Origin: Nannocystis bainbridge
GTDB lineage: Bacteria > Myxococcota_A > Polyangia > Nannocystales > Nannocystaceae
Length of the DNA stretch: 64,000 nucleotides
Assembly: GCF_028368995.1 (NCBI RefSeq)
Contig: NZ_JAQNDL010000003.1
Location: forward strand, 1,952,001-2,016,000
Reading direction: 5' to 3'
The translations under genes and the position numbers were made by a program. This document shows, in pieces, positions 2,431-61,594 of this stretch (position 1 is its first letter; each line of letters begins with the position of its first letter). The notes beneath the pieces were generated by a model. The model made no database searches. It was not told the DNA's origin and worked only from the letters and a program-made list of their open reading frames with translations.

Positions 2431-2539
2431 ATTGTCCTCATGGAAACTTCGGACATGCCCCAAGGGACATATCCGACGCGCCATCCATCGCCTGAACGAC
2501 TCTCATGAGCTTTGGACATGCCCCAAGGGACATGTCCGA
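2420..2539. repeat. imperfect tandem duplication (~65 bp period) spanning the sigma gene stop, each copy carrying GGACATGCCCCAAGGGACAT
   Basis: ccatcgcctgaa...tcatg...ggacatgccccaagggacat.tccga at 2420-2476 and 2485-2539. Confidence 0.8.
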
Positions 2540-2649
2540 ATCGCCATCTTTGATGACTCCCGATTCCGATGATTCAGGACATCGGCGATGCGACCGACCC
2601 GGCACCGCGCCGGCCCGCCGGGACACAAAACATCAAAGTCGACGGGCGT

Positions 2650-3774
2650 TCAATCGCCGAGCGCCATGTCGATCTGCGCCAGCGCGACCGCCATCGCTGC
2701 CTTCTGGGCGGCCAGGTTGCCCGCCGCCGTCCCGCCGTCGGCCTTGGCTCCGGCGCTGTCGAACGAGTGGCCGGCGTTCGGGTAGACCGTGATGTCGTAG
2801 AGGTTCGGCACCTTCTGCTTGCTCGCCACCTGCCCCGCCTGGATCTCCCGCGAGCCGGCGCCGTGCTCGGTGCTACAGTGCTCGACCAGCGAATCCTCGC
2901 TGCCGTGGAGGATGAACAGCGGCGCGGTCGGCAGGTACTTGTTCTCGACGGCCACCTTGGTGCTGGTCGAGAGCGGCACCGTGCCGTCGAAGCCGCAGCC
3001 CGGGTAGTACGCGATCCCGACCTTGAAGTCCGGCCGCCCCGGCTTCACGTCCGGCACCGGGATGTCGACCGTGTTCGCCTTGGTCTCGCGGAAGTACTGC
3101 AGCGCGTGCTCGATCTGCCAGTGCAGCCCCAGCATCGTCATCGTCCCGCCCTGCGAGAAGCCGAGCAGGCCCATGCGGTCGCAGTCGACCTCGGGCCGGT
3201 CGCACAGGTAGCGCGTCGCGGCGTCGAGGTCGTAGATCCGGCCCAGGATCTGCTCGGTGTTCTCGTCGAAGGTCTTGGGCATCTTGCTGGCCTGGGAGTG
3301 CTTGTCGCAGAACCCGCGGGCCGAGTAGCTCGACGGCAGCAGCACTGTGTAACCCAGCTTGGCCAGGCGGTCCGACCAGGCGGTGAATTGCGACTCCATC
3401 TGCTCGCTGCACGGGGCGGCCTTGGTCTTGCCGTCCTTGAGCAGGCCGCCGGAGCCGTGCAGCACCATCATCGCCGGCTTCTGGCCGACCGCCTTGGACC
3501 ACTTCGGCCGCACCAACTTGGCCGGGATCGCCAGGCCCTGCGCGTGCAGCGATTTGGGGATCGTGACATCGAGGACCTCTACCCCGACGACCGTGGCGCC
3601 GCCGAGGTCGGCCTCGCCGCCACTGTCGCCGCCACCCCCCAATTCGGAGGACAGCTCCAGGTGATGCCATTCCTGCGACTCGACCGCGTCAGGCCCGTAC
3701 GCCTCCTCGTCGCAGCCGACCGCGAGCACAGCCACGCACATCGTCGTCTTCGCCAGGGTCCTTGCGTGAATCAT
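2650..3774 (-). CDS. dienelactone hydrolase-family alpha/beta hydrolase, lipoprotein
   Basis: Lipobox LAVGC; HGSGG, nucleophile GFSQG, YYPGC, HGSEDSLV and YPNAGHSFD motifs. Confidence 0.85.
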   Translation of the reverse strand: MIHARTLAKTTMCVAVLAVGCDEEAYGPDAVESQEWHHLELSSELGGGGDSGGEADLGGATVVGVEVLDVTIPKSLHAQGLAIPAKLVRPKWSKAVGQKPAMMVLHGSGGLLKDGKTKAAPCSEQMESQFTAWSDRLAKLGYTVLLPSSYSARGFCDKHSQASKMPKTFDENTEQILGRIYDLDAATRYLCDRPEVDCDRMGLLGFSQGGTMTMLGLHWQIEHALQYFRETKANTVDIPVPDVKPGRPDFKVGIAYYPGCGFDGTVPLSTSTKVAVENKYLPTAPLFILHGSEDSLVEHCSTEHGAGSREIQAGQVASKQKVPNLYDITVYPNAGHSFDSAGAKADGGTAAGNLAAQKAAMAVALAQIDMALGD

Positions 3775-3875
3775 CGTCAGACACCTCCTCGTCCGACAAT
3801 CTCGTCACCTCAAGAACACGTCAATGCTGCGTGTCGACCGCCTTCGCAATTACGACCCTGGCGCCGATTGCACAT

Positions 3876-3918
3876 ATGTCCCAAGGGACATGCCCTTCGG
3901 GGCATGTCATGAAAGACG
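3876..3918. repeat. three-unit array of the TGYC-N6-GRCA palindrome
   Basis: atgtc ccaagg gac atgcc cttcgg ggc atgtc atgaaa gac, 14-bp period. Confidence 0.8.
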
Positions 3919-4646
3919 GGTGAGGCGTGAGCCATGTCTCCATGTGCGTGAGCGGCGGCGGTTGCCGCGCAGAGGTTCACGCAGTCTGCCTCGGAAGATG
4001 TGTCGACTTTCTCAAATCAGTGAGAAATCGCAAGATATAGGTCCCAGCGTTCAGCGGTCCGATCGTGCTTCTGCGCAACCGTCGCCGCGGCCCTGCCCCC
4101 GGCTGCAGGTCGCCCAAGCTGCTTCCTGCGCGGCCGGCCGCCTACAGCGCAGCGATCCCCGTCCAGCCGGCGCGCTCTCGCGCCTCAGAAGCTGTCTTCT
4201 TGGACCCAGGACGGGATGCCCACGCCTTGACACCTCCCCCCGGCGCGTCACGCACCAGCGACGCCGCAACGGCCGCGGATCCCCGCTCCGCACGGCGAGG
4301 CAAAGGATTGGATGCCCTCCCCTGCATCGCCCTGGAGCGCCCGGGCTCGTGCCAGCGAATCACGCGAGGGCGCCTACGCGGACGCAGGCTCCAGCGAGGC
4401 GGCCCGATCGGCCGCCCCGTGGACCCGTGGCATACCCCGCAGCATCACCACGATGACGGCCGCGAGCAGCAGCTCGGAGACGGCGAAGCCCACCAGATAC
4501 GCGGCAGTGCCCGGCGCGCCGCTCACGGTCAGGGCCAGATCGGCGGCGTTCCATGACCAGGAGGTAGCGGGCGACGCGAAAGAAGAGCACGCGCGACGGT
4601 AATACCGTTCGGGGCGGCCGGGCGATCCGGCCACGAGATCGCGGCT

Positions 4647-5198
4647 TCAGCCTGGAGGCAGGGGCAGCAGCATGGCCTGCGAGAAGCGCACGCGGTCGGT
4701 GCCGTTGTTGGTGCCTTGATGCATCGTCACGTCGATCCACAGCACCACGTCGAGCATGAAGTTGGGAAATGCGTCGAGCAGGGCCTCGGACCAGGCGTCG
4801 GTGGTCGCGTTGCCGCTGAGGACATCGCCGAAGAAGGTGGCCACCGTCGAGGCGCGGTGAATCCCGTGCAGCTCGGCGAGCACCCAGGTGTTGCTGCCTC
4901 CAGCGTCGGGATCGCGGGCCATGATCCCGATCCCCGAGTGGCGCAGCCCGGTCTTGACGTTGCCGGTCATGTAGAACGGCGAGATCCGGACCGGGCACAG
5001 CAGCTCGATGTCGTCGTTCTGGACGGCGGCGCCGACCAGCCAGGAGCCGTCGACGAGCTCGGCCTTGCCGATGTCGTCGGCGTTCGCCATGCGGCAGGCG
5101 CTGGCGGGGATCGCCTCGCGGAAGGTCTCCGACGCGGCGGCCGGACCGGGGGTGAATGCAATCGTGGCAGCGATGAATGGCAGGATCGTCTTGTACAT
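4647..5198 (-). CDS. secreted hypothetical protein (paralog 3 of tandem trio)
   Basis: Start MYKTILPFIAA with signal peptide; IPASACR...W...LLCP...RDPD motif shared with neighbours. Confidence 0.75.
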   Translation of the reverse strand: MYKTILPFIAATIAFTPGPAAASETFREAIPASACRMANADDIGKAELVDGSWLVGAAVQNDDIELLCPVRISPFYMTGNVKTGLRHSGIGIMARDPDAGGSNTWVLAELHGIHRASTVATFFGDVLSGNATTDAWSEALLDAFPNFMLDVVLWIDVTMHQGTNNGTDRVRFSQAMLLPLPPG

Positions 5199-5214
5199 GG
5201 TGGAGCTCCGGCGA

Positions 5215-5757
5215 TCACTGGGGCGACGGCTGGAAATCGAGGCCGACGAACGCCGGCGTCGCGGTGGCGGTGGTGTCGCGCTGGAGCGTGACCTCGACGT
5301 GGTAGGTGAAGAGGAGGAAGGAGGCGGTGTGGTTGACGAAGAGCATCGTGCGGATGAAGAAATTGTCGACGAAATCATCCGAGTCGACGACGCCGCCGGT
5401 CACCAGCGAGTCGACGGTGCTGGTCCGCGAGCGCCGCAGCAGGTCGGCGCGCACGAACGAGCTGGCGCCGTCGCCGTCGGGATCGTGGTACCACAGGCGG
5501 AACGAGGCGATATTGACCGAATCGGCCTGGGCGTCCGGACGCGACAGGTGAAGCGGGCAGAACAGCCGGGCCTCGCCGGAGTGGCCGGTGGCGAATGTCC
5601 ACACGCCGTTGGTGAGCTTGAGCTTGGCCGCGTCGGTCGAATTGCGCGGCTGGCAGGCGGGCGCGGGGATGCGGAGGTCGAACCAGGTGGCAGCGCTGGC
5701 GACGGTCGGGACGAGGGCGGCGCTCAGGGCCAGGAGAGTCGGGTAAAGGCGCTTCAT
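5215..5757 (-). CDS. secreted hypothetical protein (paralog 2 of tandem trio)
   Basis: Signal peptide ending ASA; IPAPACQPR...W.F..G..GE..LFCP...WYHDPDG. Confidence 0.8.
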   Translation of the reverse strand: MKRLYPTLLALSAALVPTVASAATWFDLRIPAPACQPRNSTDAAKLKLTNGVWTFATGHSGEARLFCPLHLSRPDAQADSVNIASFRLWYHDPDGDGASSFVRADLLRRSRTSTVDSLVTGGVVDSDDFVDNFFIRTMLFVNHTASFLLFTYHVEVTLQRDTTATATPAFVGLDFQPSPQ

Positions 5758-5764
5758 GGGGTCC

Positions 5765-6379
5765 TCAGGGCGCTTCGAAGAAGGAGACGCCGCGGAAAGT
5801 GACGGTCCGGTTGGTGCCCTGGCGGAACAGCCGCACGACCAGGAAATACTGGGCGTCGACCATCGCCAGGTTGTTCAGCGCGGTGGCGAAGGTGGTGGGC
5901 GAGGTGTTGCTGTTGTTGTCGGAAAGCACGGTGCCGACCAGCACCGAGGTGAGCGACGGCGGGGCGATCCGGCGCAGCTCGACCTTGACGCTGGCGTCGG
6001 TCAAATCACCGCTGGTATCGATGTACCACATCCGCAACTCTTCGATGATGCGGTTGCCGCTGTCCTCGTCGGTCCACGGGGTGTAGACCGGGCACTCGAG
6101 GAAGACCTCGCCGGTCTCGCCGGTGGTGAAGCGCCAGTCGACGCCGTTCCAGGTCAGCTTGCTGCGGTCGCTGGCGAGGCGCGGCTGGCAGGCGGCCGCG
6201 GAGACCCGCTCGTTCAGCTTGTCGTCTTCGGCCGCGCGCGCGGCCCCGGGCACGGCGAGTCCGCCGAGGCCGAGCGCGACCACCAGCGGGGCAGCGTGAA
6301 AGACTCTGATGAATGCGTCGCGCCGGCGCGCGGGGCGACGACGCGCGCTGGGCAGGGCCGTAGGATGTGGTTGGCTCAT
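5765..6379 (-). CDS. secreted hypothetical protein (paralog 1 of tandem trio)
   Basis: Arg-rich leader plus hydrophobic segment ending ARA; VSAAACQPR...WRFTTGETGEVFLECP...WYIDTSG; start uncertain. Confidence 0.75.
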   Translation of the reverse strand: MSQPHPTALPSARRRPARRRDAFIRVFHAAPLVVALGLGGLAVPGAARAAEDDKLNERVSAAACQPRLASDRSKLTWNGVDWRFTTGETGEVFLECPVYTPWTDEDSGNRIIEELRMWYIDTSGDLTDASVKVELRRIAPPSLTSVLVGTVLSDNNSNTSPTTFATALNNLAMVDAQYFLVVRLFRQGTNRTVTFRGVSFFEAP

Positions 6380-8473: not shown

Positions 8474-9736
8474 TTAGTCCGCGTCTGCCACACGAAACGC
8501 ATCGGCCATGGTGTCTTGTTCGGCCCGCGAGATCTCCGCCGCAGTCGCCTCCGTTCGCCAGCTCCGGACGACTTCCTTGACTTCCTCAATGATCTCTCCG
8601 GCCCTCCGAGGCTTGATGCGGAAGTGCTCTGCAACCTCACGCGCGAGCTCAAGATCTTGCGCGTTGTCCGTTTCGGAGATGTTCATGGAAAGTCCGTCCC
8701 CGCTCCTGACCGGATTCATGTCGTAGGCGGGCGCCAGTGACCACCCAGGAGGCTCGAGCAAGAAGCCGTGATTGCGCGGATGATCGTCAACGTTCGAGAC
8801 GCACACGGAGAAAACGATCCGCCGCCAGAGTTGCTCGAGGTCGCGGTCCGGCTCTACGCCGTGTTGAATGATCACCGCCGCGAGGTCGAGATAGCTCGAG
8901 TCATGGTCGCCGTCGCTCTTCTCGAGCATAGTCATCGCAGACGAGAAGTGAATGCGTTCACCGCTCGCCGAACGATCGAAACGCCGTGAAAGAAAGGTGT
9001 GGTGGGGACTCGCAAAGCGTTGCCGGGTCGAATCGGGGACAATGATGCCCGCACGATACGCCAAGACGTGTACTACGCTCTCCCACGCTCCTATGTCGAC
9101 CTCGTCGTCCTTGCTGGGGAACTTGGCAATCCAAAGCCTTCCGTCCGCGTCATATACGCTGGCCTTCGGTCGGGCCCCCCCCAAAGAGCGCCCCGGTGCG
9201 ATGAGCAACTGCAGCCATTTTTTATAAGACGGATCGTCCTCAACGCCCTGCTGCTCGAGCGCCAAGCTCGCATGTTCCAGCTCTCGCAGAGAGGCCCACG
9301 GCGGAGCCGCCAGATCACGATTGTCGTCCAGAAACGGCCCGTCCTCGACCGCAAAGCGCAACGCCCCCATCCGGTGGCCGTCGTACACGCCCAGGAGAAA
9401 ATCGAGCTCGAAGAGGTGTCGTTGTTTTCGCTTCTCCTCCCTTGCGAGCTGCGCCTCGCGGCGCTTGAGCAGCACTCTGCCCCATCGATCAGGAGAGGAA
9501 TCGAGGAACAGGTTAAAGTTCTCTTTTCCGGCAGAGGGATACTGAGGCCCCTGAAACAGACGCAACGCGGGATCGAGCACTTGGGCCTGTCCGCCTTTGA
9601 GCCACTTCTCATCATATTCGAAGGAAAAGACCTCCTTGGTGCGGACACGCATGGAATGGAGGACCCCCATACGTGTCGGACCGGCGAGTCCCATCCAGTG
9701 GGCCCACACCGTGATACTTCGTCTCTCAGACGTCAT
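8474..9736 (-). CDS. hipA: type II toxin-antitoxin HipA-family kinase toxin
   Basis: [55 protein letters not shown]. Confidence 0.92.
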
Positions 9737-10082
9737 CCTGCTCCCCTCCCGAGGTCTCTGCGCTTTTTGGCTTCCTCGACCGTGGCCGTCGCTCGGGTTG
9801 CATCTTCAAATCCTGAAGCCGCCTCCCGAGTTCATCATCTTTAGCTATCAGCGCGAGGTCTTTCTCCAAACCCAGGCAATGCAACACGTTTGCGTATGCA
9901 CCGATGGTGACCCCGGCTTCTCCTCGTTCGATGGCCCTGAGTGTCGGAGCAGACATACCGGCGCGCTCAGCGACGAGGGCGCTGGGCAGTCTGCGCCGCA
10001 AGCGGGCCAGGCGAATACTCTCCCCCATCTGCTGAAGAAGACGGGAAACTGCGGGCAGCGGGGCCACGGTCGTTCGGGCCAT
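9726..10082 (-). CDS. XRE-family HTH antitoxin (HipB-like)
   Basis: [13 protein letters not shown]...[18 protein letters not shown]; overlaps the hipA start. Confidence 0.88.
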
Positions 10083-11303: not shown

Positions 11304-11483
11304 TACGGCGAGCGGCCTCTCGCCTGGGGCGCGGCGCGTCCGCCTCTCGCTCCTGGCCGGCCACCCGCTCCACGCCGATTCGCCCGCGACAGCGGGCTTC
11401 GCCGCGCGCCGATTCCGCTCGCGACGACGGCGGCGCCGCGGGGCGCCGCCGTCTCGTCTGTCCCTTCGGACAGCTCTCTCGAA

Positions 11484-12821
11484 TCAGCCGAACAGCGGCA
11501 GCGAGTCGGTGACGATGCCGAACTTCTTCGCCGCCGCGCTCTCGGCCACCCCGGCCATCTCGCGCAGGGCCAGGTGGACGTGCGGGGCGGTGAGGACCAC
11601 GCCGTTCTCCGTCTCGTCGAGCTCGAGTGTGTCGGGGTCGATGCCGATCGGCAGCTGCTCGCCCTCGGTGGTGGCGCCGACGACCCGGCCGCCGCCGCCG
11701 AGCAGGCCCGGGTTGCCGCTCAGGAACATGGCCGAAGAGACAGGCCAGTGGTCCTTGCCCGAGCCCGCGTCCATGCCGTTGTAGCCCTTGCCGCGGCCGA
11801 AATCGGAGCCGACCATCACGATCAGGTTGGTGTCGATGCCGGCCATCACCGCCTGCGACATCACGTAGTCGATGCCCCACATCAGCTTGGCCAGCTGGCG
11901 CACCTGCACCGTGTCGTGGTTGGCGTGGGTGTCGAAGCCGCCGATCTCGAGGTTGACGCCGACCGCAAGGCCGGCCGTGAACGCCGCCATCGCCAGCTGC
12001 GTCTGCTGGGCCATGCGCTCGAGGTCGCCCATCTCGTTCGGCAGGTCGATGAGCGTGTCGGGCAGCGCCACTGACGACAGCAGGTCGAGGTTGCCGCGCG
12101 CGAGGTAGAGCTGCCCCGCCGCGGTCTCGATCTTCGGCAGGCGCTGCTTGGCCTTGAACGCGGCCAGCCGCTCCTGCTGGGTCGCGGCGATGCGGTCGAA
12201 CGTGTCCTGGTGGACGTAGGTGGTCATGTTGCCGGGGTCGGCCGGGTTGACGCGATTCGGCTGGGCCAGCTTGCGGAACGAGGTCACCGAGTTGAGGCGC
12301 GTGACCGGGATCAGGTTGCCGGTGCCCGAGTAACCGCCGCCGGAGATGAACGCCAGCGGGTGCTCGGGCGCCCGCGTGGCCGCCACCAGCGCGGCGAAGT
12401 TGGGGTAGCCGCCGTCGCCGCGGCCCGACCAGATCGTCACCACGCCGCGGTCGTGGTTGTTGGTCGCCATGTTGACCCCGTTCAGCACCACCAGCTTGCT
12501 GGCGTACTTGGCGAAGAAGTCGGCGTTCGACATCATGTACGGCACCGACATCGGGTCGGTCACCAGATTGGCGGCCAGCGGGATGTCGGCGTAATGGATG
12601 TCGCCCACCTTCGTCGGGTCGGCGGGGTCGTAATCATAAAGGCGGTTGAACGTGCCCTTCGGCTTGGGGTCGCAGAAGTACACGGGGTCCCAGCCGCCGC
12701 GGGCGCTGATCATCACGTAGAACGGGCCCTTGTAGGGCGGCAGCGCGGCGCGGGCGTGGCGCGGCAGGGCGACGGCGAGTCCGGTCCCGGCGGCGATCTT
12801 GAGGAAGCTGCGGCGATCCAT
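11484..12821 (-). CDS. Tat-exported DUF1501-family protein
   Basis: MDRRSFLK twin-arginine leader; GGWD, GGFDTHANH, SDFGR, GKDHW motifs. Confidence 0.88.
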   Translation of the reverse strand: MDRRSFLKIAAGTGLAVALPRHARAALPPYKGPFYVMISARGGWDPVYFCDPKPKGTFNRLYDYDPADPTKVGDIHYADIPLAANLVTDPMSVPYMMSNADFFAKYASKLVVLNGVNMATNNHDRGVVTIWSGRGDGGYPNFAALVAATRAPEHPLAFISGGGYSGTGNLIPVTRLNSVTSFRKLAQPNRVNPADPGNMTTYVHQDTFDRIAATQQERLAAFKAKQRLPKIETAAGQLYLARGNLDLLSSVALPDTLIDLPNEMGDLERMAQQTQLAMAAFTAGLAVGVNLEIGGFDTHANHDTVQVRQLAKLMWGIDYVMSQAVMAGIDTNLIVMVGSDFGRGKGYNGMDAGSGKDHWPVSSAMFLSGNPGLLGGGGRVVGATTEGEQLPIGIDPDTLELDETENGVVLTAPHVHLALREMAGVAESAAAKKFGIVTDSLPLFG

Positions 12822-52030: not shown

Positions 52031-53140
52031 ATGGCTCCTCCTTTCGATCTCCTCGTTCGCGGCGGGACATGCGCGCTCCACGGTCACATCACCGTCTGCG
52101 ACCTCGGGATCACCGGCGGGCGGATCGCCGCGGTCGGCGACCTCGCCGGCGCCGAGGCCGAGCGCGAGCTCGACGCCCGCCACCTCCACGTCCTGCCCGG
52201 CGTGCTCGACACCGGCGGTTACCTGCGTGACGAGGGCGGCAGCGCTCAGCTCCTCGCCGGCGTCACCGCCGTGTTCGACGCCCACCCGCACCCCACCACC
52301 GCTGCTGGCCTCGAGGACAAGCTCTCGCGCGCGCGCGGCCGCGCCCACTGCGACTACGCCTTCTTCATCGCCGCCGCCACCGACCACGTCGACGACCTCG
52401 ACCGGCTCGAGCGGCTGCCTGGCTGCAGCGGCGTCGTCCTCTCGCTCGGCAGCGACGACGAGCCGCTGCACCGGGCCCTGTTCTGCGGCCAGCGGCGCGT
52501 CACCGTCTCGTGCGAGCCTGACCCGCACCCCGAGCCCGTGGCCGCCGGCGCTGCCGTCGACCTCTACCGCGACGAGGGCGACGCCACGCGCGCGCTCCAG
52601 CGCTTCCTCAACATGGCCAAACGGGCGGGTCGGCGCGTCCACGCCTCCAACGTCGACGGCCCCGAGGCCCTGGCCCTGCTGACCCAGCACCGCGACCTCG
52701 CCACCCTCGGCTCCGCCGCCGCCGACCTCGGGCCGGCCTCTCCGGGCGCCGACGCGCTGTGGCGGGCCGTCGCCGGCGGCCTCGTCGACGCGCTCGGCTC
52801 CGGCCCCGAGGGCGCCCAGCTCGGCCCGCTCCTGCCGACCATGCTCGCCCACCTCCACGCCGGTCGGCTCGGCCTCCCGCAGCTGGTCGAGCTGCTGTCC
52901 TCCGGGCCGGCGCGGATCTACAACGTCGCTCGCAAGGGCCGGCTCGCCCTCGGTTACGACGCCGACCTCGTGCTCGTCGACCTCGACGCCGAGCACACCC
53001 ACGCCGGCGTGCGCTACCACGGCTGGCCGGTCGCCACCGTGCTGCGCGGCGAGCTCGTCGCCCGCGACGGCCGCCTCGTCGCCGGCCCGAGCGGCGTCCC
53101 CGTGCGCTTCTCCGACACCCTGCGCATGGTCGTCCTCTGA
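52031..53140 (+). CDS. dihydroorotase-like amidohydrolase homolog, predicted inactive
   Basis: FDLLVRGG, GRIAAVG, LPGVLD, GVTAVF, HCDYAF, LERLPG, KGRLALGYDADLVLVD, GWPVATVLRG; metal ligands absent. Confidence 0.8.
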   Translation: MAPPFDLLVRGGTCALHGHITVCDLGITGGRIAAVGDLAGAEAERELDARHLHVLPGVLDTGGYLRDEGGSAQLLAGVTAVFDAHPHPTTAAGLEDKLSRARGRAHCDYAFFIAAATDHVDDLDRLERLPGCSGVVLSLGSDDEPLHRALFCGQRRVTVSCEPDPHPEPVAAGAAVDLYRDEGDATRALQRFLNMAKRAGRRVHASNVDGPEALALLTQHRDLATLGSAAADLGPASPGADALWRAVAGGLVDALGSGPEGAQLGPLLPTMLAHLHAGRLGLPQLVELLSSGPARIYNVARKGRLALGYDADLVLVDLDAEHTHAGVRYHGWPVATVLRGELVARDGRLVAGPSGVPVRFSDTLRMVVL

Positions 53141-53141
53141 G

Positions 53142-53358
53142 CTGTCCCGAGGGACAGCTTGCCGCGTCGCCCCGCCTCGCGCGCCCCGGCCCGACCGCGA
53201 CATGTCCCGAAAGACAGCCTGCCCCGCAGCCCCCGCGCGGCGGCGCGCCGGGCCCGTCGGCCGGGCCCACGCGCGCCGCCGCTCACCGCCGGGATTGGCG
53301 CGACATGTCCCGAAGTACAGGTCATGCCGATCGTCGGCCGGCCTGTCTGCAAAGACAG
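53142..53358. repeat. four spaced TGTC-N6-GACA palindromes
   Basis: Copies at 53142, 53202, 53305 (TACA variant) and 53343. Confidence 0.78.
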
Positions 53359-53465
53359 CATCGGTAAAACCTCCCGAGGACGTCGCCACGCGCACGCTCC
53401 GCGAGGGCCGGGCCGCGCGCCCGCGAGCCCGCGGGTGCGAGGGTTTGCTGTAGAGTCCGACCGAT

Positions 53466-55955
53466 ATGGCGACACGGCGACGGACACTGGTGGGGATGTG
53501 GAGCATCGTGGCGGCGACGGCCGCCGGCTGCAGCGACGACGGCACGGCCTCGACGGCCGACACGACCGGAGGGGTCCTGCCGACCGCCTCGTCGACCGAC
53601 GGCGCGACCGACGGCACCGCCGGGACCACGGCCACGCCGCCGACCGGCACCACCGAGAACGGCAGCGACAGCGAGAACGCGACCGAGTCGACCGTCACGC
53701 CGACCAGCACGACCGACGGCACCACCGAGCCGGTCGTCACCAGCACCACCGTCGACACCGAGACCACCGACGGCTGTGACTGTCCGGCCAACTTCAAGTG
53801 CAAGTACGACACCTGCATCCCCGACCTCGGCACCTGCACCACCCACGACGACTGCCCGGGTGACTCCTACTGCGACCCCGACGGCGAGTGCATCCCGTAC
53901 GGCGTCCCCGAGGGCACGATCAACGACCCCGAGTGTCAGAAGGACGACATCCCCGAGGGCATCACCCCGGTGGTGCAGTGCGAGTGGAGCGCGGTCAAGG
54001 ATCCGGCCAACGACCCGACCAAGAACTCGACGTACATCTACACCACGCCGATGGTCGCCGACCTCAACCTCGACAACGACCCCGGCAAGCTGCAGCCCTC
54101 GATCATCGTCAACACCTTCGCCAGCATCGGCAACATGGGCCGGATCGGCACCCTGCGGATCTTCGACGGCCGCACCTGCGAGCTGCAGCTGCAGGCCGGC
54201 GGCGCCGACGAGCCCGACGACTCCAACCGCCCCGGTTATTCGGCGCACTGGGCCATCGGCGACCTCGACGGCGACGTCCCGCAGGGCGGCCGGCCCGAGC
54301 TGGTCGGCTACCACCGCGTCACCAGCAACAACGACAACGGCCCGCTCAACCTCTACGCCTTCCGCATCGTCGACGACGGCGACACGCCCAAGCTCGAGCG
54401 CATGTGGTACGGCCGCAATTGCGAGACCGACACCCTGCTCACCTTCTCGAGCGCCGGCGCCACCAACGGCCCGAGCCTCCACGACCTCGACGGCGACGAG
54501 TTCCCCGAGATCGTCGTCGGCGACCAGGTGTTCGACCGCGACGGCTGCCTGCTCACCACCTGGACCGCCAGCGGCGCCAACCACATGCCGGTGATCGCCG
54601 ACGTCGACCTCGACGGCCAGATGGACTTCGTCAACCACCGCCGCGTCGCCGGCTGGGACCCGGGCACCGGCGAGTGGGTCGACAAGCCGTGGTTCATGCC
54701 GGCCAACCAGCCGGGCGGCTACATCGCCGTCGCCAACGCCGGCCTCTACTCGGTCGTCGACGGCGTCGACTTCGAGCTGGCCCCCGAGGTCGTCGTGCTC
54801 AGCGTCAGCAACAGCATCGGCCGCCTGCGGATCCAGAGCCTCACCGGCGAGACCAAATGGGGCCCGATCCAGCTGTACGCCAAGCCCAACGAGACCATCG
54901 GCCAGGGCGGCCCGGTCACCGTCAGCGACTTCGACGGCGACGGCCAGGTCGAGTTCGCCACCGCCGCGGCCACCTACTACGCCGTCTACGACCCCGACTG
55001 CGTCGCCGCGCTGAACGGCGGCAGCCCGACCGAGCGCCCCGGCGGCAAGTGCGAGCGCTCGCCCGCGCAGCAGGCCAAGAACCTGCCTGACGGCGTGCTG
55101 TGGGTCCAGCCCTCGCAGGACCTGTCGTCGAACATCACCGGCTCCTCGATCTTCGACTTCAACGGCGACGGCGCGGCCGAGGCCGTCTACCGCGACGAGT
55201 GCTACCTGCGCGTCTACGACGGCAAGAGCGGCGAGGTCCTGTTCAGCGCCCCCGCCTCCTCCGGCACCGGCAACGAGTACCCCGTGATCGCCGACGTCGA
55301 CGGCGACTTCGCCACCGAGATCGTCGTCCCGCGCACCAGCTTCAACAGCTGCCCGGCGATGGACCCGCTCTACCCGATGGCCCCCAAGTTCGTGTCGCGC
55401 CCCGGCTTCGTCGTCTACCGCGACCCGCTCGACCGCTGGGCCAACTCGCGGCCGATCTGGAATCAGTACCAGTACTCGATCACCCATATCACCGACGACG
55501 CCCGCGTCCCGTCGGCCGACACGTTCGTCAACAACTGGGAGACCCCCGGTCTCAACAACTTCCGCCAGAACGACCAGGGCTCGACCGGCAAGCTCAACAT
55601 CGCCGACCTCACCGTCGAGCTGACCGACCTCGGCACCCTGTGCCAGAACCAGGGCGGTACCATCGACCTCCAGGCCGAGGTGTGCAACCGCGGCACCAAC
55701 CCGGTCCAGGACGGCGTGGTCGTCCAGTTCCTCGAGACCACCGACCCCGCCCAGCCGGTCGACCAGGCCGCCGTCGTCTGCGAGGCCGTCACCACCAAGC
55801 TGCTCGCCCCCGGCGAGTGCGAGACCGTCACCTGCACCGCCGACCTCCAGGGCGGCGGCACCGTCTACGTCGACGTCGACCCCGAGGACAAGATCGCCGA
55901 CTGCCACCCCGGCAACAACCTCGGCGCCGACGCCCTCGACATCTGCCCGGGCTGA
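53466..55955 (+). CDS. FG-GAP/VCBS-repeat lipoprotein with C-terminal CARDB-like domain
   Basis: Lipobox AAGC, Thr linker, repeated DxDGDG.xE motifs, ADLTV...VCNRG...VDPEDKIADC..GNN. Confidence 0.87.
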   Translation: MATRRRTLVGMWSIVAATAAGCSDDGTASTADTTGGVLPTASSTDGATDGTAGTTATPPTGTTENGSDSENATESTVTPTSTTDGTTEPVVTSTTVDTETTDGCDCPANFKCKYDTCIPDLGTCTTHDDCPGDSYCDPDGECIPYGVPEGTINDPECQKDDIPEGITPVVQCEWSAVKDPANDPTKNSTYIYTTPMVADLNLDNDPGKLQPSIIVNTFASIGNMGRIGTLRIFDGRTCELQLQAGGADEPDDSNRPGYSAHWAIGDLDGDVPQGGRPELVGYHRVTSNNDNGPLNLYAFRIVDDGDTPKLERMWYGRNCETDTLLTFSSAGATNGPSLHDLDGDEFPEIVVGDQVFDRDGCLLTTWTASGANHMPVIADVDLDGQMDFVNHRRVAGWDPGTGEWVDKPWFMPANQPGGYIAVANAGLYSVVDGVDFELAPEVVVLSVSNSIGRLRIQSLTGETKWGPIQLYAKPNETIGQGGPVTVSDFDGDGQVEFATAAATYYAVYDPDCVAALNGGSPTERPGGKCERSPAQQAKNLPDGVLWVQPSQDLSSNITGSSIFDFNGDGAAEAVYRDECYLRVYDGKSGEVLFSAPASSGTGNEYPVIADVDGDFATEIVVPRTSFNSCPAMDPLYPMAPKFVSRPGFVVYRDPLDRWANSRPIWNQYQYSITHITDDARVPSADTFVNNWETPGLNNFRQNDQGSTGKLNIADLTVELTDLGTLCQNQGGTIDLQAEVCNRGTNPVQDGVVVQFLETTDPAQPVDQAAVVCEAVTTKLLAPGECETVTCTADLQGGGTVYVDVDPEDKIADCHPGNNLGADALDICPG

Positions 55956-55975
55956 TCGCCCCCGCGCCGCCTCAC

Positions 55976-56117
55976 CTGTCCTCGAGGCCATGTCGCTGCC
56001 GCGCAGCGCCATGGCCCCGGGGACATGTCCATTCGGACATCCTCGACATCTGCCCTGACAGCCCCTCCGGCGGTCCACCAGGTCCGCGCCAGGTCATGGA
56101 CCTGTCCCGAGGGACAT
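55976..56117. repeat. cluster of four TGYC-N6-GRCA palindromes upstream of AraC gene
   Basis: Copies at 55976, 56011, 56025, 56102. Confidence 0.75.
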
Positions 56118-56163
56118 CCCTGCCCCTGGCGCCCGCGCCGTCGACCGGCTTAAAATTATCGAC

Positions 56164-57099
56164 ATGCAGGGCAAGCCGATCGCCGTCGAGGGCATCCGCT
56201 CGGTCCGCGCCGCCCGCGGGACCTGGAGCGGCGTCGAGGCCGCCTCACTGCATTGGTACTCCTACGGCGGCCGGCGGTCGACCATCGACCTCTCCGGCCC
56301 GCGCCACCGCCTCGCCATCCTCCTGCAGCAGGTCGGGGGCTTCTGCGAGGCGCGCAGCAGCCCTGGCAAGCCCGGCCTCACCCGCAACCCGGGCGCGCGC
56401 TTCGCCTCGTCCCACCCCGGCGGCGCGCCGCTGTGGGGCTATAGCGAAAGCATCGAATACACCCACGAGCTGGCGCTGACGTTCGACCCGCGCGAGCTGT
56501 CGACCCGCCTCGGCGAGCCGCTGCGCGACGACGACCTGGCGCCGCGACCATGGCTGACCAACCCGCGGATCTTCACGCTCGCGGAGCTGCTCGCGACCGA
56601 GGTCGGCGGCGACGGCGAGCTCGGCCAGCTCTACGGCGAGAGCCTCGTGCTCGCGCTCGTCGTCGAGTACCTGCGGACCGTGCGCGCGCACGGCCCCGCC
56701 GCGCGCAAGGGCGGCCTCACGCCGAGGCAGCTGCGCGACGTGTGCGCGTACATGCACGAGCACCTGTCGGCCCCGGTCGGCCTGCGCGAGCTGGCCGACC
56801 TCAGCGGCATGTCGCAGGCCCATTTCAGCCGCGCCTTCAAGGCCTCCACCGGCGTCCCACCCTACCGCTGGCAGCTGGCCGCGCGGGTCGAGAAGGCCCA
56901 GCAGCTGCTGCTCCGGCCGGGCAGCTCGCTCGCCGACATCGCCTTGCAGCTCGGCTTCGGCGACCAGTCGCACCTCACCCGCGTATTCCGCCGCGTCGTC
57001 GGCACCACTCCGAGCGCGTGGCGCCACACCCACGGCCGTCCCGAACGCCAGGCGACCACCGCCGAAGAAGTGGCCGCGACCCGACGACGCGAACCCTGA
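56164..57099 (+). CDS. AraC-family transcriptional regulator
   Basis: GGLTPRQL, HFSRAFKASTGVPPYRW, GFGDQSHLTRVFRRVVGTTP. Confidence 0.92.
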   Translation: MQGKPIAVEGIRSVRAARGTWSGVEAASLHWYSYGGRRSTIDLSGPRHRLAILLQQVGGFCEARSSPGKPGLTRNPGARFASSHPGGAPLWGYSESIEYTHELALTFDPRELSTRLGEPLRDDDLAPRPWLTNPRIFTLAELLATEVGGDGELGQLYGESLVLALVVEYLRTVRAHGPAARKGGLTPRQLRDVCAYMHEHLSAPVGLRELADLSGMSQAHFSRAFKASTGVPPYRWQLAARVEKAQQLLLRPGSSLADIALQLGFGDQSHLTRVFRRVVGTTPSAWRHTHGRPERQATTAEEVAATRRREP

Positions 57100-57175
57100 A
57101 TGCATGCAGGCTCGCGTCGCCGCACGTCGACGCTGCGAGGCGCTCTCGCCACGCGATGCCGCCGCGAGGCGACGC

Positions 57176-57823
57176 TCAGCTACCGCGACCGGCGCGCAGC
57201 AGCTGCATCTCCCACGCGAACGCCACCCCGGTCCCGCCCGCGTGCGCCATCATCGCCTCGCTCATGTCCGCCACCGTCGCCTCGCGGGCCCAGTCGCGCT
57301 GCAGCTCCGAGCCGAACACCATCCAGGTGATCGGAACAGCCCCGGCCTGGACCATCCGCCGCACCGCCATGTCGTGCGCCTCCGCCGACACCCCGCCGGA
57401 CGCGTCCGTCACGATATAGACCTCGAAGCCCTCGCCGAGCGCCTGGATCGTCGGCATAGCCAGGCAGATCTCGGTCCACAGCGCCGCCAGCACCAGCTTC
57501 TTGCGGCCCGTCGCCTTCACCGCGTCCACCACCTTCTTGTCCTCCCACGTGTTGATGAGCGTGCGGTCGATCGGCTTCTGCTCCGGGAACACGTCTTGCA
57601 GCCCCTTGATCAGGTAGCCGCCGCGCTCTTCCAGCACCGTCGTCAGGATCGTCGGCACCTTGAACGCTTTGGCCGTCTTCGCCAGGCCGATCACGTTGTT
57701 GACGATCATCGTCGGATCATGGCTGTGAAGATTGGCGAACTGGAACGGCTGATGATCGATCAGCACCAGCACGCAATTGTCGGGGGTGAGCAGCGCGTCG
57801 AGACCGGTCTTGTTGTTGGACAT
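57176..57823 (-). CDS. isochorismatase-family hydrolase (YcaC-like)
   Basis: LLTPDNCVLVLIDHQP, ALWTEIC, VTDASGG, ELQRDWAR. Confidence 0.9.
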   Translation of the reverse strand: MSNNKTGLDALLTPDNCVLVLIDHQPFQFANLHSHDPTMIVNNVIGLAKTAKAFKVPTILTTVLEERGGYLIKGLQDVFPEQKPIDRTLINTWEDKKVVDAVKATGRKKLVLAALWTEICLAMPTIQALGEGFEVYIVTDASGGVSAEAHDMAVRRMVQAGAVPITWMVFGSELQRDWAREATVADMSEAMMAHAGGTGVAFAWEMQLLRAGRGS

Positions 57824-58162
57824 GGGAAATCTCCTGCGAGCCCGCGCGGGCGCCGGCTCGTTCGCCGCGGAACCTAGCGGGGCCCGGGGCCGCAGCGCTT
57901 GGACGATCGTGCCGGCTTGGAAGATCCCTGCCGTCGATATGCCTGCCCCCCCGCCGCGGGCCCGCGCCGAGGCACCGCGCGCCCGCGACACAACTATCAA
58001 TACATGTCCTTTTGGCCATATGATGAATAGCTCCGAGCCTGTCCCGAGAACATCTGCGCCAAGCCCGAAGCCTCTGTCCCGAAATTCACCCGCACCCGCG
58101 CGAAAACGAGCGCACAGCCCCACGTGGCTCCGGCGTGACCGCTGAAGTATCCTCGAGCGCGC

Positions 58163-59194
58163 ATGCGGCTCCTCGGCGCCTCGGTGGTCCTTTTCACCGC
58201 CTGCTTGCCGGTCGAGCCCGGGTACCTGATCACTGCCCCCAGCTTCCGCGGCGTCCGCCTCGAGGTCGTCGAGCCGGGCGGCTACGCCTCGCTGCTGAAC
58301 GCCCCGCCCGGTCGCCCGCGGGCCACCTTTTTGCCGCTCGACACCATCGAGCTCACCGCGCATTTCGCCGCTCCGTCCGGCGTAGCGATCCAGCCGCCGA
58401 TCTGGCTGTACTGCGGCGTCGAGTGCTCCGTCGCGGGCCCGCTGGTCGAGCTCGTCGGCGACGTGGCCGCCTGTCCCACGCCCCTGCCGCTCAACCTGAT
58501 CGACCCGTGTCGCCTCGACGAGGCGATGCAGATCCGCGTCAGCATCGCCGGCGCCTTCACCTTCGCCCGCGCCGAGCTCCGGCTCCTGCTCGTCGCCAGC
58601 CGCGACCCCGACCTCACCCCCGCCACGTGCCTCGAACGCCTGACGCGACGGCCGCACACCGACCTCGAACCGTGCATTGTCGCCCATTGGGGGCTCAGGC
58701 CCGGCCCGCGGTGGGCCTTGCTCCCGTTCGCCCCGGACACCGCCGCCATCCCCCGCGAGATCCTCGAGCAGGAGGTCGACACCAACCCCGACATCGTCGG
58801 CTTCCGGGTCACGCGCCAGCGCGGCGCCGATCGCCGTGAGCAGCTCGTCGATCCGGGTGCGCGGATCGGGGTGCGTCGCGGCGAGCGCATCACCGTCGAG
58901 CCTCTCTTTACCGCGGAGTCCGCCCAGCAGTACTGGCTCACGTACAATGACGAGGAGGGCAAGCCCTACTCGGGCGAGCTCCGCGACTATCAAGAGGAGC
59001 TGACGATCCGCCCCTGGTTCGACGCCCCCGTCCTCGGCCTCGACTGGGAGACCTACGACGATTGGCGCGAACCTCCCCTCACCTGGATCGTCCCCGACAA
59101 CGTCGAGCCCACCCGCCTCTTCCTCGACGTGATGGACGATCGCGCCGGCCGGGCCTCTGCCGAGCTCCTGTTCGTCGCCGACGACGCCCCATGA
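58163..59194 (+). CDS. lipoprotein (module 1 partner of TonB receptor)
   Basis: Lipobox FTAC; paralogous to 61721..62755; 4-bp overlap with the receptor gene. Confidence 0.8.
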   Translation: MRLLGASVVLFTACLPVEPGYLITAPSFRGVRLEVVEPGGYASLLNAPPGRPRATFLPLDTIELTAHFAAPSGVAIQPPIWLYCGVECSVAGPLVELVGDVAACPTPLPLNLIDPCRLDEAMQIRVSIAGAFTFARAELRLLLVASRDPDLTPATCLERLTRRPHTDLEPCIVAHWGLRPGPRWALLPFAPDTAAIPREILEQEVDTNPDIVGFRVTRQRGADRREQLVDPGARIGVRRGERITVEPLFTAESAQQYWLTYNDEEGKPYSGELRDYQEELTIRPWFDAPVLGLDWETYDDWREPPLTWIVPDNVEPTRLFLDVMDDRAGRASAELLFVADDAP

Positions 59195-61473
59195 TTGCCC
59201 TCGGCCTTTACGCCGTGCTCGCGGCCGCCGACCCGGCCCCCGTCGAACGCCCCGCGCGCGACCGCGTCCAGGGCCTGCTGCGCAGCGCCGGCGAGCGCCA
59301 GCCCGTCGCTGGCGCCCGGGTCTTCGCCACCGCCCGGCGCGGCCCCGCGTGGAAGCGCGAGGCCGTGTCCGACCGCGACGGCGTGTTCGTGCTCGCCGAT
59401 CTGCCCAGCCGCGATTTTGTCCTCACCGTCGTCGCCGCCGGCCACCAGCGATTCGAGCAACCGACCACCGCCCCTTATTGGTCGCGCCGCAAGCCGCCGA
59501 CGATCTACCTCCAACCCCAGGGCGCCGGCGGCTATCGCACGATCGTCGAACAGCAGCGCACCACCCGGCCGAGCACTGTCAGCACCAGGCTGCAACCCGA
59601 GGAGATCGCCAACCTCCCCGGCAGCCAGGGCGACCCGCTGCGCGCCTTGCAAAACCTGCCCGGCGTCGCGCGGATCCCCGGCGGCCTCGGCCTCATCGTC
59701 CTGCGCGGCGCGGCCCCCAATCAATCGCAGGTGTTCTTCGGCGAGCACCCGCTGCCGCGCGCCTTCCACGTGCCCGGCCTCGCCAGCGTCGTCCAGACCG
59801 GCGTCCTGCAGGGCCTCGAATACGTGCCCGGCAACTTCTCCGCCCATTACGGCAACGCCGTCGGCGGCGTCGTCCACCTCACCCCGCGGGTCGGCCGGCG
59901 CGACGGCCTGCACGGCCACGCCAAGCTCGACATCACCTCGGTCGGCGCCCTGCTCGAGGGCCCGTTCGGCAAGGGCGGCTCGTTCCTCCTCGCGGCCCAG
60001 CGCGGCTACCTCGACCTCGCCCTCAAGGCCCTGCCTGACGACGTGCTCAATGGTGACGCCCTGCAGCCGCGCTACCACGATTATCAATTCATCTTCGACC
60101 ACCCCGTCGGCCGCGGCGGCACCCTCACCGTGCGCCTGATCGGCGCCTCCGACGACCTGCGGATCGTCTCCGGCGGCCTCCCCAACTTCCGCCTGCGCAC
60201 CGCCTTCGACCGCGTCGACCTCGCCTACCGCAAGCGTCACGGCCGCTGGGACTTCCTGCTCGCCCCCGCGGTCCGCTTCGACCGCTCGGATTTCTCGGCC
60301 CGCGTCTTCACGCGTCGCAACAACGTCGTCGGCCTCCTGCGCGCCGAGGCCAGCGTGCGCCCGCTGCGGCCGCTGCAGCTCACTCTCGGCTTCGACACCC
60401 AGCTCGACCGCTACAAGACCCGTCAGGTCACGGCTCCCCCTCAGCTCCCCGAGGAGGACGTGACCGCCCGCGGCCTGCTCACCACCTCGGGCCTCTACCT
60501 CTCCTCGCAGCTCGACCTCGGCCGCTACGCCGTCGTCGCCGGCGTCCGCGTCAACGCCTTCACCGCCGCCGAAAACGCCCTGTTCACCGCCGACCCACGC
60601 CTCCTGCTGCGCTACAGCCCGCACGAGCGGGTCCGCTTCCAGCTCGGCGCCGGCATGTACTCGCAGCCGAGCCTGCGCAGATCCCTGCGAACGGCCGGCT
60701 TCACCTACGAGACCATGGAGGGCGGCCCGGCGCACACCTTCGGCAACGTCATCCTCCCCGGCGCCGCCCGCTTCCTCGACCCCCAGCTCGAGTTTCAGCC
60801 CGGCCGCCGCGTCGGCGCCAGCCAGGCCACGCAGTACAGCGCCAACCTCCACGTCGACCTCACCGCCGCGCTCGACCTCGACGCCACGATCTTCTACCGC
60901 CGCGTCCGCGACCACCTCCCGCCCGACCCCGACGACCCGGAGCTGCCCGACACCGCCTCGTCGACCCACGGCGTCGAGCTCATGCTGCGCCACGACCTCA
61001 CCGCGCGCCTGTTCGGGTGGATCGCCTACACCTGGATGCGCTCCGACGCCCACCGCCTGTTCCCCGACGGCACCATCGCCCGCGCCCCCGCCGACTTCGA
61101 CCAGCGCCACAACCTCGTCATGCTGGTCGGCTACAAGCTCCCGCGCCGCTGGTCGATCGCCGCCCGCTTCCGCCTCGTCACCGGCCTGCCCTTCACGCCC
61201 TACGTCGGCGGCCTCAACCACCAGGGCGAGGACACCTACCCGATCGCCGGCCCGCCCAACAGCGGCCGCATGCCGGTGTTCCACCAGCTCGACCTCCGCC
61301 TCGACCGCACCTGGATCTTGCACCGCTGCATCGTCGGCGCCTACCTCGACGTGCAGAACGTATACAACCGCCCGAACGCCGAGGGCCTCATGTATTCGCA
61401 CGACTACGCCAGCACCCGCGCCGTCGTCGGCGTCCCGATCTTGCCGGTGCTCGGCGTGAAGGTCAGCTACTGA
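59191..61473 (+). CDS. TonB-dependent receptor with N-terminal carboxypeptidase-regulatory-like domain
   Basis: LPGSQGDPLRALQNLPGV, RG plug motif, YGNAVGG, DFDQRH, FHQLDLRLD, LDVQNVYN, terminal Tyr. Confidence 0.88.
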   Translation: MIALGLYAVLAAADPAPVERPARDRVQGLLRSAGERQPVAGARVFATARRGPAWKREAVSDRDGVFVLADLPSRDFVLTVVAAGHQRFEQPTTAPYWSRRKPPTIYLQPQGAGGYRTIVEQQRTTRPSTVSTRLQPEEIANLPGSQGDPLRALQNLPGVARIPGGLGLIVLRGAAPNQSQVFFGEHPLPRAFHVPGLASVVQTGVLQGLEYVPGNFSAHYGNAVGGVVHLTPRVGRRDGLHGHAKLDITSVGALLEGPFGKGGSFLLAAQRGYLDLALKALPDDVLNGDALQPRYHDYQFIFDHPVGRGGTLTVRLIGASDDLRIVSGGLPNFRLRTAFDRVDLAYRKRHGRWDFLLAPAVRFDRSDFSARVFTRRNNVVGLLRAEASVRPLRPLQLTLGFDTQLDRYKTRQVTAPPQLPEEDVTARGLLTTSGLYLSSQLDLGRYAVVAGVRVNAFTAAENALFTADPRLLLRYSPHERVRFQLGAGMYSQPSLRRSLRTAGFTYETMEGGPAHTFGNVILPGAARFLDPQLEFQPGRRVGASQATQYSANLHVDLTAALDLDATIFYRRVRDHLPPDPDDPELPDTASSTHGVELMLRHDLTARLFGWIAYTWMRSDAHRLFPDGTIARAPADFDQRHNLVMLVGYKLPRRWSIAARFRLVTGLPFTPYVGGLNHQGEDTYPIAGPPNSGRMPVFHQLDLRLDRTWILHRCIVGAYLDVQNVYNRPNAEGLMYSHDYASTRAVVGVPILPVLGVKVSY

Positions 61474-61572
61474 TCTTCATTGCCATCCCTCTACGATTCG
61501 CAGGACTGCTCGAGCGCAAGCACGGCCGTCGGCCTGCCGGCCTTGCCCGTCCTCGCATCGAGATCTATTCGA

Positions 61573-61594
61573 GACATGTCTCGAAAGACATGTC
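61573..61594. repeat. perfect GACATGTC-N6-GACATGTC motif
   Basis: gacatgtc tcgaaa gacatgtc. Confidence 0.8.

Follow-up and report, generated by a model that had tools for sequence, protein, structure and literature searches.

A short gapped palindrome iterated by the thousand at gene ends in Nannocystis bainbridge: a candidate DNA site for a dimeric protein

Bacterial chromosomes carry several kinds of short palindrome in multiple copies. The repetitive extragenic palindromes (REPs) of enterobacteria and pseudomonads bind gyrase and IHF, protect the 3' ends of mRNAs and serve in termination. HIP1, the highly iterated palindrome of cyanobacteria, is found about once per kb throughout its lineage, also in coding DNA; to our knowledge, it has neither an accepted function nor an element that mobilizes it. 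The matS sites, the Noc-binding sites (NBS) and the SlmA-binding sites (SBS) number in the tens, and they are confined to, or excluded from, a macrodomain. A bipartite 4-N6-4 arrangement, finally, is the format of some restriction-modification enzymes, and the targets of restriction systems are usually avoided in genomes. In this report, we examine the gapped palindrome TGTC-N6-GACA in a 64,000-nucleotide stretch of Nannocystis bainbridge DNA (the window: positions 1,952,001-2,016,000 of contig NZ_JAQNDL010000003.1, assembly GCF_028368995.1; sites are given in window positions) and in the genome to which it belongs. We lean, with modest confidence and on the strength of sequence comparisons, towards the view that it is a selected double-stranded-DNA site for a putative dimeric protein, and that it marks the ends of transcription units.

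The excess of TGTC-N6-GACA, to which an earlier note on this DNA had called attention, is real and stronger than stated there. Twenty perfect copies lie in the window, against a mean of 0.68 and a maximum of 3 in 100 dinucleotide shuffles; all 18 copies that the note had listed are among them, joined by two others at 9942 and 48462. In the whole assembly (11.05 Mb in five contigs, 71.5% GC, with a marker-gene completeness of 90.5%) there are 3663 copies of the motif, and each other spacer from N0 to N19 occurs only 29-175 times. The specificity for the six-base spacer, which the note had taken to be fixed, is thus overwhelming. TGTC-N20-GACA, with 984 copies, represents two units of the 14-bp chain described below. 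When all 4-Nk-4 palindromes were surveyed without bias, the same family took the top places: CATG-N10-CATG (3736), TGTC-N6-GACA itself, GTCC-N4-GGAC (2651), GACATGTC (2237), ATGT-N8-ACAT (2000) and ACAT-N12-ATGT (1609). The non-complemented reverse of GACATGTC is present only 30 times, and ACATGT is found 4234 times against 558 for its reverse. The position profile yields the consensus (A/G)C(A/C)TGTCC-(C/T)NN(G/A)-GGACA(T/G)G(T/C), with conservation limited to the unit, its immediate flanks and a 14-bp echo.

Units were scored against the ten-position consensus TGTCC-N4-GGACA, which the genome matches perfectly 1987 times, at 9/10 4258 times and at 8/10 7530 times. For six control patterns, which either shared the composition or carried a wrong spacer, the corresponding numbers were 3-16, 161-359 and 2968-6080. 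The units at 9/10 or better total 6245, far above the 164-369 of the controls; therefore, at least about 6000 of them are real, or roughly one per 1.8 kb. The variant counts also identify the near matches reported before, with TGCC, TGGC or GGCA, as genuine minor forms.

Units chain in an exact register. Measured from start to start between units of at least 9/10, 485 pairs are 14 bp apart, none is 13 or 15 bp apart, and all distances from 16 to 20 bp together account for 8; further pairs are found at 28 bp (305), 42 bp (232), 56 bp (128) and 70 bp (64). The head-to-tail chaining with a 14-bp period that had been proposed is fully borne out by these distances. Because neighboring 18-bp sites in an array overlap by the palindromic CATG, successive dimers could take up positions at 14-bp intervals, each rotated by about a third of a turn relative to the last. 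Given the exactness of the register, it is plausible that the putative protein polymerizes along arrays. The longest chains have eight units (at 8/10 or better). Spacers mostly differ between the units of one array, and GACATGTC cores without perfect neighbors are accompanied by degenerate half-sites that are still in register. Some arrays do contain near-identical neighboring units, and some long tandem repeats carry units.

Slight excesses of unit pairs at 36, 48, 72, 108 and 126 bp probably derive from longer tandem repeats. Local hot spots of units are also partly long tandem repeats, and they gave no pointer to the binder. At C3:1096000-1098200, outside the window, lies the densest 5-kb interval of the genome (23 units, where the mean is 2.8). 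There, about 2.2 kb without a called gene consist of tandem repeats of roughly 110 nt, each with a double unit TGGCCCCGGGGACAGGTCCCTGGGGACA whose junction is GGACAGGTCC in place of GGACATGTCC. Either a gene for a repetitive protein or a giant array could account for this segment.

The distribution of the sites relative to genes is highly uneven. Genes were called from codon statistics by a home-made caller (8355 genes, about 85% of the genome, with approximate starts). Perfect sites reach 3.17 per kb in convergent intergenic DNA (906 sites), 1.2-1.4 per kb in tandem intergenic DNA (1187 sites) and 0.46 per kb in divergent intergenic DNA (235 sites); deep in called genes, where about a third of them lie (1212 sites), the density is 0.13 per kb, and convergent regions thus exceed coding DNA 24-fold. 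At least one perfect site is present in 566 of the 1503 convergent regions. When units of at least 9/10 are considered, 53-62% of the convergent regions that are 50-200 nt long have one, as do 12-31% of tandem regions longer than 50 nt, and the share climbs with third-position GC content: it is 14.5% for the lowest quintile of genes and 54% for the highest. Behind stop codons, sites are found from +2 onwards and peak at +2/3 and +16/17; a perfect site falls between -14 and +150 of the stop in 1705 of 8347 genes. Of the 720 sites in tandem regions of 150-500 nt, 375 fall within the 30% of the region nearest the upstream gene and 13 within the final 10%; the sites of divergent regions lie in the middle. 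The earlier observation that the sites do not track promoters therefore stands, but their strong tracking of gene 3' ends had gone unnoticed. The genes that flank units in the window encode a trehalose-phosphate synthase/phosphatase, an amidohydrolase, and FG-GAP, TonB-receptor-like, SIR2-like and kdpD-like proteins. These genes are mutually unrelated; the pattern belongs to gene ends and not to a regulon.

On a larger scale, density is roughly even over all five contigs, at 23-105 per 200 kb, and no ori/ter or macrodomain pattern is seen along them. These figures, together with a total of 3663 sites instead of tens, speak against the analogy with matS, Noc and SlmA sites that had been suggested. 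Base composition does matter: genome-wide, there are 0.04-0.075 sites per kb where local GC is below 68%, and 0.30-0.52 per kb where it is 70-78%. The absence of sites that had been noted in low-GC islands of the window is matched by a depletion across the whole genome, although one perfect match, at 9942, lies in the window's low-GC stretch. Inside genes, 1209 sites were found against 69-91 in five synonymous-codon shuffles, a 15-fold excess. Many of these lie in weaker coding signal (in 755 of 1089 cases both flanks exceed the 10th percentile of random coding positions, and in 265 they exceed the median), and part of them are likely gene miscalls; others, such as the unit at 24357 in a kdpD-like gene, are clearly in coding sequence.

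The element is confined to the genus Nannocystis and its family. Among named records, those nearest to a protein of the window come from Nannocystis species, at 90-93% identity, and the 10 other Nannocystis genomes that were searched have 240-3957 perfect copies of TGTC-N6-GACA against 6-48 of the reversed control. Two other genera of the Nannocystaceae are moderately enriched (G011, 623 against 98; G013, 422 against 18), with 161 perfect TGTCC-N4-GGACA against one control match in G013; under a crude criterion for open reading frames (ORFs), 7 of 15 G013 sites lie inside ORFs and 8 outside. Beyond the family, counts are close to background. N. bainbridge has 369 copies of the full 18-mer CATGTCC-N4-GGACATG; of 200 further genomes of the phylum, from 142 other genera, only two have it at all, with one copy each. 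This 18-mer is thus a simple lineage marker for Nannocystis DNA.

The presence of units is conserved where the surrounding sequence is not. Coding DNA is about 89-93% identical to that of five relatives, and the last 150 nt of genes have an identity of 0.89; over the 150 nt behind stops this drops to 0.65, against a baseline of 0.63 for unrelated regions. Nevertheless, orthologous gene ends keep a unit in 25 of 38 comparisons in which N. bainbridge has one, and have one in 9 of 32 in which it does not. The units at such ends sit at slightly shifted offsets, with other spacers and in varying copy number. Where places can be aligned (e.g., 3877 and 40331), the half-sites and outer flanks are mostly kept and the spacer is changed.

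What kind of protein might recognize such a site is suggested by its layout. The operator of the Bacillus subtilis PadR dimer, C-N-T-G-N-A-N6-T-N-C-A-N-G, is 18 bp long, with a 6-bp spacer between two halves of 6 bp (PMC5728393). Read from -2 to +15, the Nannocystis unit is C[A/C]TGTC-N6-GACA[T/G]G. When its profile and least tolerant positions are set against the C-N-T-G specificity bases, the unit has the same symmetric 6-N6-6 plan, with C[A/C]TG in the place of C-N-T-G of the padC operator; the sixth base of the half-site is A in the PadR operator and C in the unit (PMC5728393). PadR operators are few and lie at promoters, whereas the units number in the thousands and lie at gene ends. Isolated units, (A/G)CCTGTCC-N4-GGACAGG(T/C), agree with the lux box in spacing and in the six outermost bases of either half; the inner bases differ, and the lux box is a promoter element in few copies. 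It is described as the 20-bp binding domain of LuxR-AHL (acyl-homoserine lactone) (PMC4444344). Judged from these likenesses, the geometry of the unit is that of an ordinary helix-turn-helix (HTH) dimer, and it does not identify a family. The proposal that the palindrome is a site for a dimeric DNA-binding protein gains support from independent half-sites, strand symmetry of loops and T-tracts, strict spacing at 14 bp or at least 21 bp, and this solved winged-HTH operator geometry (PMC5728393).

We propose that two inverted half-sites C[A/C]TGTCC, with TGTC and GACA exactly 6 bp apart, would be bound by a dimeric HTH-type protein of Nannocystis and its close relatives. Point mutation and local duplication of 14 bp would create and replace sites; selection would retain them where transcription units end, chiefly between convergent genes, and would exclude them from roughly 100 nt before start codons. 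The bound protein would mark or insulate these ends. It could be a roadblock to read-through into the convergent neighbor or, at places where positive supercoils accumulate, an anchor of topology or of the nucleoid. That all of this amounts to an undescribed DNA-level system, in which a lineage-specific dimeric protein on several thousand palindromes serves as bidirectional roadblock terminator, insulator or supercoiling anchor, is a possibility that we regard as rather unlikely.

A number of observations weigh against a protein-binding site at transcription-unit ends. The gene calls are crude, and the avoidance of promoters and the counts in coding DNA are only approximate. The conservation data consist of 70 comparisons from one window and five non-independent relatives, and a non-selective process may be creating sites steadily. 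No binder was identified: the PadR family (PF03551) has no match at E <= 0.001 in N. bainbridge and none over the cut-off in G001, although both genomes have more than 3600 sites. Among the 11 Nannocystis genomes (N. bainbridge included), bona fide matches occur only in G003, G005, G007 and G010; the sub-threshold matches look HxlR-like or like other winged-helix proteins, as judged by eye from their translations. Because PF03551 is below the cut-off in N. bainbridge and G001 and patchy in the genus, the binder is not a canonical PadR. We accordingly rejected PadR as a candidate, and its likeness is kept only as a comparison of how such a protein might work. Worth noting in its own right is the lack of a detectable PadR gene in this 11-Mb myxobacterial genome, while the family is present in all 14 control genomes and is represented once or twice in some sister species.

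The remaining adverse points are those that would suit a hairpin. An RNA or single-stranded hairpin of the REP or terminator kind, with a 5-9-bp stem and a 4-nt loop at the end of the mRNA, would stop RNA polymerase or shield the 3' end from exonucleases, and its palindromy would serve both members of a convergent pair; we consider it unlikely in either role. The position behind stop codons and the presence in more than half of the 50-200-nt convergent regions do resemble those of bidirectional terminators and REPs. Single units can fold as RNA (-9 to -15.7 kcal/mol, with z-scores down to -3.45), and the unit at 39007-39022 is followed by a T-run. The C/G-compensated form TGCCC..GGGCA is found, net of background, 118 times where 60 were expected, about a twofold excess. 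Complementarity of positions -1 and +14 is 0.578 over all sites against 0.472 expected, an excess that is gone in isolated units. At co-oriented genes, the stop-distal half-site is the changed one in 494 of 895 single changes and the proximal one in 401, a mild polarity that a purely symmetric DNA site would not predict. In addition, terminator-like sites of the hairpin-plus-T type are at chance in 38001-58000 (5 against 5.8 expected), a hint that this genome has few classical intrinsic terminators and that transcripts may end by some other means. Pairing, however, does not appear to be what is maintained. Complementarity at the variable positions is that of independent half-sites (0.269 v 0.263, 0.330 v 0.333 and 0.591 v 0.571), and the extension of the stem into the flanks of 1532 isolated units, 0.851, compares with 0.817 +/- 0.026 for shuffled partners. 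The other compensated doubles at positions 2/11 fall below expectation after subtraction of background (G/C 14 against 76, A/T 11 against 21), and single changes compatible with G-U pairing are not preferred (G>A at position 9, 127; C>T at position 4, 106). Behind 1385 co-oriented gene ends, the two strands are alike in TTCG and CGAA (75 v 74), in UUCG plus GNRA loops (146 sense v 150 antisense) and in T-rich tails (126 v 114). The oriented profile has no T-tract after the stem, with 39007-39022 as an exception, and tRNA genes show no enrichment at their ends (9 of 102 on the downstream side and 3 of 102 on the upstream side). The lack of a T-tract, the symmetric T-tails and the tRNA ends led us to reject the classical intrinsic terminator as a general reading. 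Separate hairpins, moreover, would need no exact 14-bp register, about a third of the perfect sites lie within predicted genes, and no Rfam family reaches the gathering score in the window.

Function of any kind would be superfluous if the units were a selfish or neutral short repeat, made recurrently by a process such as 14-bp slippage, cryptic insertion or repair and persisting where it does no harm, in DNA between gene ends that is free of promoters. We think this quite unlikely. The order of densities (convergent, tandem, divergent, coding) would also be expected of harmless insertions; the near-identical neighbors in some arrays, the long tandem repeats with units and the variation in unit number and position among species are in keeping with such a process, and the rarity of sites in low-GC, presumably recently acquired, DNA fits slow accumulation. 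The 3663 sites, however, comprise 3637 distinct 30-mers. With almost no shared flanks, nothing larger than about 18 bp can have been copied, and a Y1 transposase of the RAYT (REP-associated tyrosine transposase) type (PF01797), which the control search matched in 6 of 14 named genomes, has 0 matches in N. bainbridge. A RAYT-type REP was rejected for want of this transposase and of pairing covariation; a miniature inverted-repeat transposable element (MITE) or larger mobile unit was rejected on account of the unique flanks and a profile without shared internal sequence or terminal repeats. Neutral decay would not leave half-sites largely kept among spacers and surroundings at baseline identity, nor does neutrality explain why the same gene ends keep a unit across species or why in-gene units so exceed the synonymous shuffles. 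Highly improbable, in our judgment, is a palindrome of the HIP1 kind, in which a modification enzyme or short-patch repair acting on the bipartite site, or on its CATG/ACATGT core, drives or maintains the excess. The bipartite 4-N6-4 format, the prevalence of GACATGTC and ACATGT over their reverses, the reach of the excess into coding sequence and the paucity of sites in low-GC DNA would all suit it. Repair bias, on the other hand, leaves the gene-end position, the avoidance of start codons and the 14-bp register unexplained, and restriction targets would usually be avoided, not enriched 50-fold. The earlier suggestion of a HIP1-like or self-DNA mark fares similarly: the rarity in low-GC DNA fits it, but the gene-end position does not follow from it. 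Thus, because its half-sites are independent, its behavior is symmetric between strands, its flanks are not shared and a Y1 transposase is missing, we read the palindrome as a DNA site and not as a RAYT-type REP, a MITE or a hairpin terminator.

Individual units of the window illustrate these properties. The perfect unit at 3877-3890, TGTCCCAAGGGACA, is flanked by ACATA..TG and lies in non-coding DNA upstream of the minus-strand gene 2650-3729; its place aligns in all five relatives, where the outer flank and the outer half-site bases are largely kept, some half-site bases are changed and the spacer is changed throughout. The match at 9942-9955 is perfect for TGTC-N6-GACA and lacks the inner CC/GG. 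It lies in a stretch of 61% GC, has no orthologous match in the five relatives and is possibly a chance match. A HipA-like kinase gene (8474-9670, minus strand; HipA_C, E 9.5e-48) belongs to the 61-65% GC stretch at 8-12 kb. The unit at 11459-11472 occupies a convergent intergenic region, 11 nt after the stop of gene 11484-12821 (minus strand); the orthologous stops are followed by a unit of at least 8/10 in three of five relatives and by a 7/10 remnant in a fourth. Between genes 12852-15239 (minus strand) and 15748-17127 (plus strand), the unit at 15673-15686 has full flanks, ATATGTC..GACATGTC, and its place aligns in one of five relatives, where the left half is TGAC. The coding unit mentioned above, at 24357-24370, lies in frame near residue 220 of a kdpD-like sensor kinase gene, between the KdpD and Usp domains; it is perfect in four of five relatives and has GGGCA in the fifth, within a stretch that is 94-96% identical. 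An array that had been placed at 29864-29936 is indeed present, as five degenerate units at 29865-29935, one of them 15 nt long. The array takes up the 93 nt that separate the convergent genes 28375-29853 (plus strand) and 29947-30324 (minus strand). The former gene, directly 5' of the array, encodes a 492-residue protein with a C-terminal SIR2-like domain (SIR2_2, E 1.4e-25), and its 3' end found no anchor in the five relatives.

Two units belong to the predicted APH-family gene 31706-33124 (minus strand). The one at 32897-32910, in the 5' part of the gene, has degenerate forms and a 1-nt length difference in relatives; the one at 33068-33081 is present in all five, in a stretch conserved like coding sequence. 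The trehalose-phosphate synthase/phosphatase gene 36835-38994 is followed, 13 nt beyond its stop, by the unit at 39008-39021, to which the T-run noted above belongs; at 39047-39074 come two abutting units, TGGCCCCCGCGACA and TGTCTCCGGGGACA, and then a partial third. The unit at 40331-40344 lies in the 5' end of the TPR gene 40186-42546 or, should that gene truly start farther downstream, immediately before it; all five relatives have this unit with the half-sites kept and a different spacer. Another, at 45306-45319, is inside the predicted gene 44859-45725 (minus strand) and has degenerate forms in relatives, and that at 48462-48475 spans the last codons of gene 46780-48483 and is present in all five. 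The unit at 51597-51610 begins 28 nt after the stop of gene 51267-51569, and a second one, at 51694-51707, shares its intergenic region.

Variation among species is seen in the intergenic region 53141-53489. Its first unit (53143-53156) lies 2 nt after the stop of the amidohydrolase gene 52031-53140, and in the three relatives compared here (G003, G005 and G007) a unit with another spacer lies 3-5 nt after the orthologous stop; a second unit is at 53203-53216. The number of units in this region ranges from 3 to 6 among the four genomes. The counterpart in G003 is 606 nt long and contains several repeats of roughly 50-70 nt, each with one unit; therefore, larger local duplications also multiply units. 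The unit at 53344-53357, about 130 nt upstream of the FG-GAP gene 53490-55955, is different from those at gene ends, in that two relatives have it identical, spacer included, and a third in degenerate form. It may be a genuine promoter operator for the same putative protein. Behind the FG-GAP gene, a degenerate unit TGTCCTCGAGGCCA (55977-55990) lies 21 nt after the stop, followed by two abutting units, TGGCCCCGGGGACA and TGTCCATTCGGACA (56012-56039), and by a further one in the same region at 56103-56116. The unit at 61577-61590 has full GACATGTC flanks on both sides and lies 103 nt after the stop of the TonB-receptor-like gene 59191-61473.

If the units are indeed protein sites, about one gene in five would have a perfect copy of the same binding site just after its stop, and more than half of the convergent pairs that are 50-200 nt apart would carry that site. 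Three questions would then become open to experiment: how very GC-rich bacteria with few classical terminators delimit their transcription units, how convergent transcription and its supercoiling are dealt with, and by what route a binding site reaches thousands of copies when no transposase spreads it. Since units and arrays lie inside or beside many called genes, they also call for caution in annotation. Even as a neutral repeat the element would be unusual, with its 14-bp unit, free spacer, strict register and independent half-sites, and it fits none of the repeat families that were tested.

We found no description of the element in open-access papers or preprints, though a Nannocystis genome paper or its supplement may mention it; neither that literature nor Rfam offers a described transcription-factor site, REP or MITE of this taxon that matches it. 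A CRISPR or another described RNA family was rejected, as Rfam gave no match in the window and a 14-bp period leaves only 4-6 variable bases. The element is related to the highly iterated extragenic palindromes, and it fails the defining tests of REP/RAYT, MITE, HIP1 and matS-like sites. Like the REPs and the bacterial interspersed mosaic elements (BIMEs) of enterobacteria and pseudomonads, it is short, present in hundreds to thousands of copies, extragenic, located after gene ends and between convergent genes, often clustered and lineage-specific, and the functions of REPs are the same set that we have considered here. A REP unit, however, is about 20-40 nt long, and the Nannocystis unit is 14-18 bp long, with a fixed gap of free sequence and no pairing covariation; its neighbors abut at exactly 14 bp, and about a third of its perfect sites lie in predicted genes. 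REPs are spread by RAYT transposases. The Nannocystis element thus has the extragenic gene-end position of a REP and neither the RAYT gene nor a hairpin maintained by pairing.

HIP1 is likewise a short palindrome, found about once per kb throughout a lineage and also in coding DNA. It is a contiguous octamer that occurs in coding and non-coding DNA alike, whereas the Nannocystis unit is gapped and bipartite, mainly extragenic at gene ends, far denser between convergent genes than in coding DNA, and arranged in phased arrays. The sites of MatP, Noc and SlmA are, like the present one, palindromes (of 12-16 bp) for dimeric proteins that are scattered over the chromosome; those of Nannocystis number in the thousands, are spread roughly evenly over five contigs and are tied to gene ends. 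As a functional analogy only, a parallel may be drawn with the roadblock terminators mTERF, of mitochondria, and Reb1, of yeast. We know of no such roadblock system described in bacteria. If the bolder possibility of a dedicated DNA-level system, which we rated rather unlikely, is correct, the Nannocystis sites would be a bacterial counterpart of mTERF/Reb1-type termination, with proteins doing the work of hairpin terminators in a genome of 71% GC. As in those systems, the bound protein could stop polymerases arriving from either side, which fits symmetric sites placed between convergent genes.

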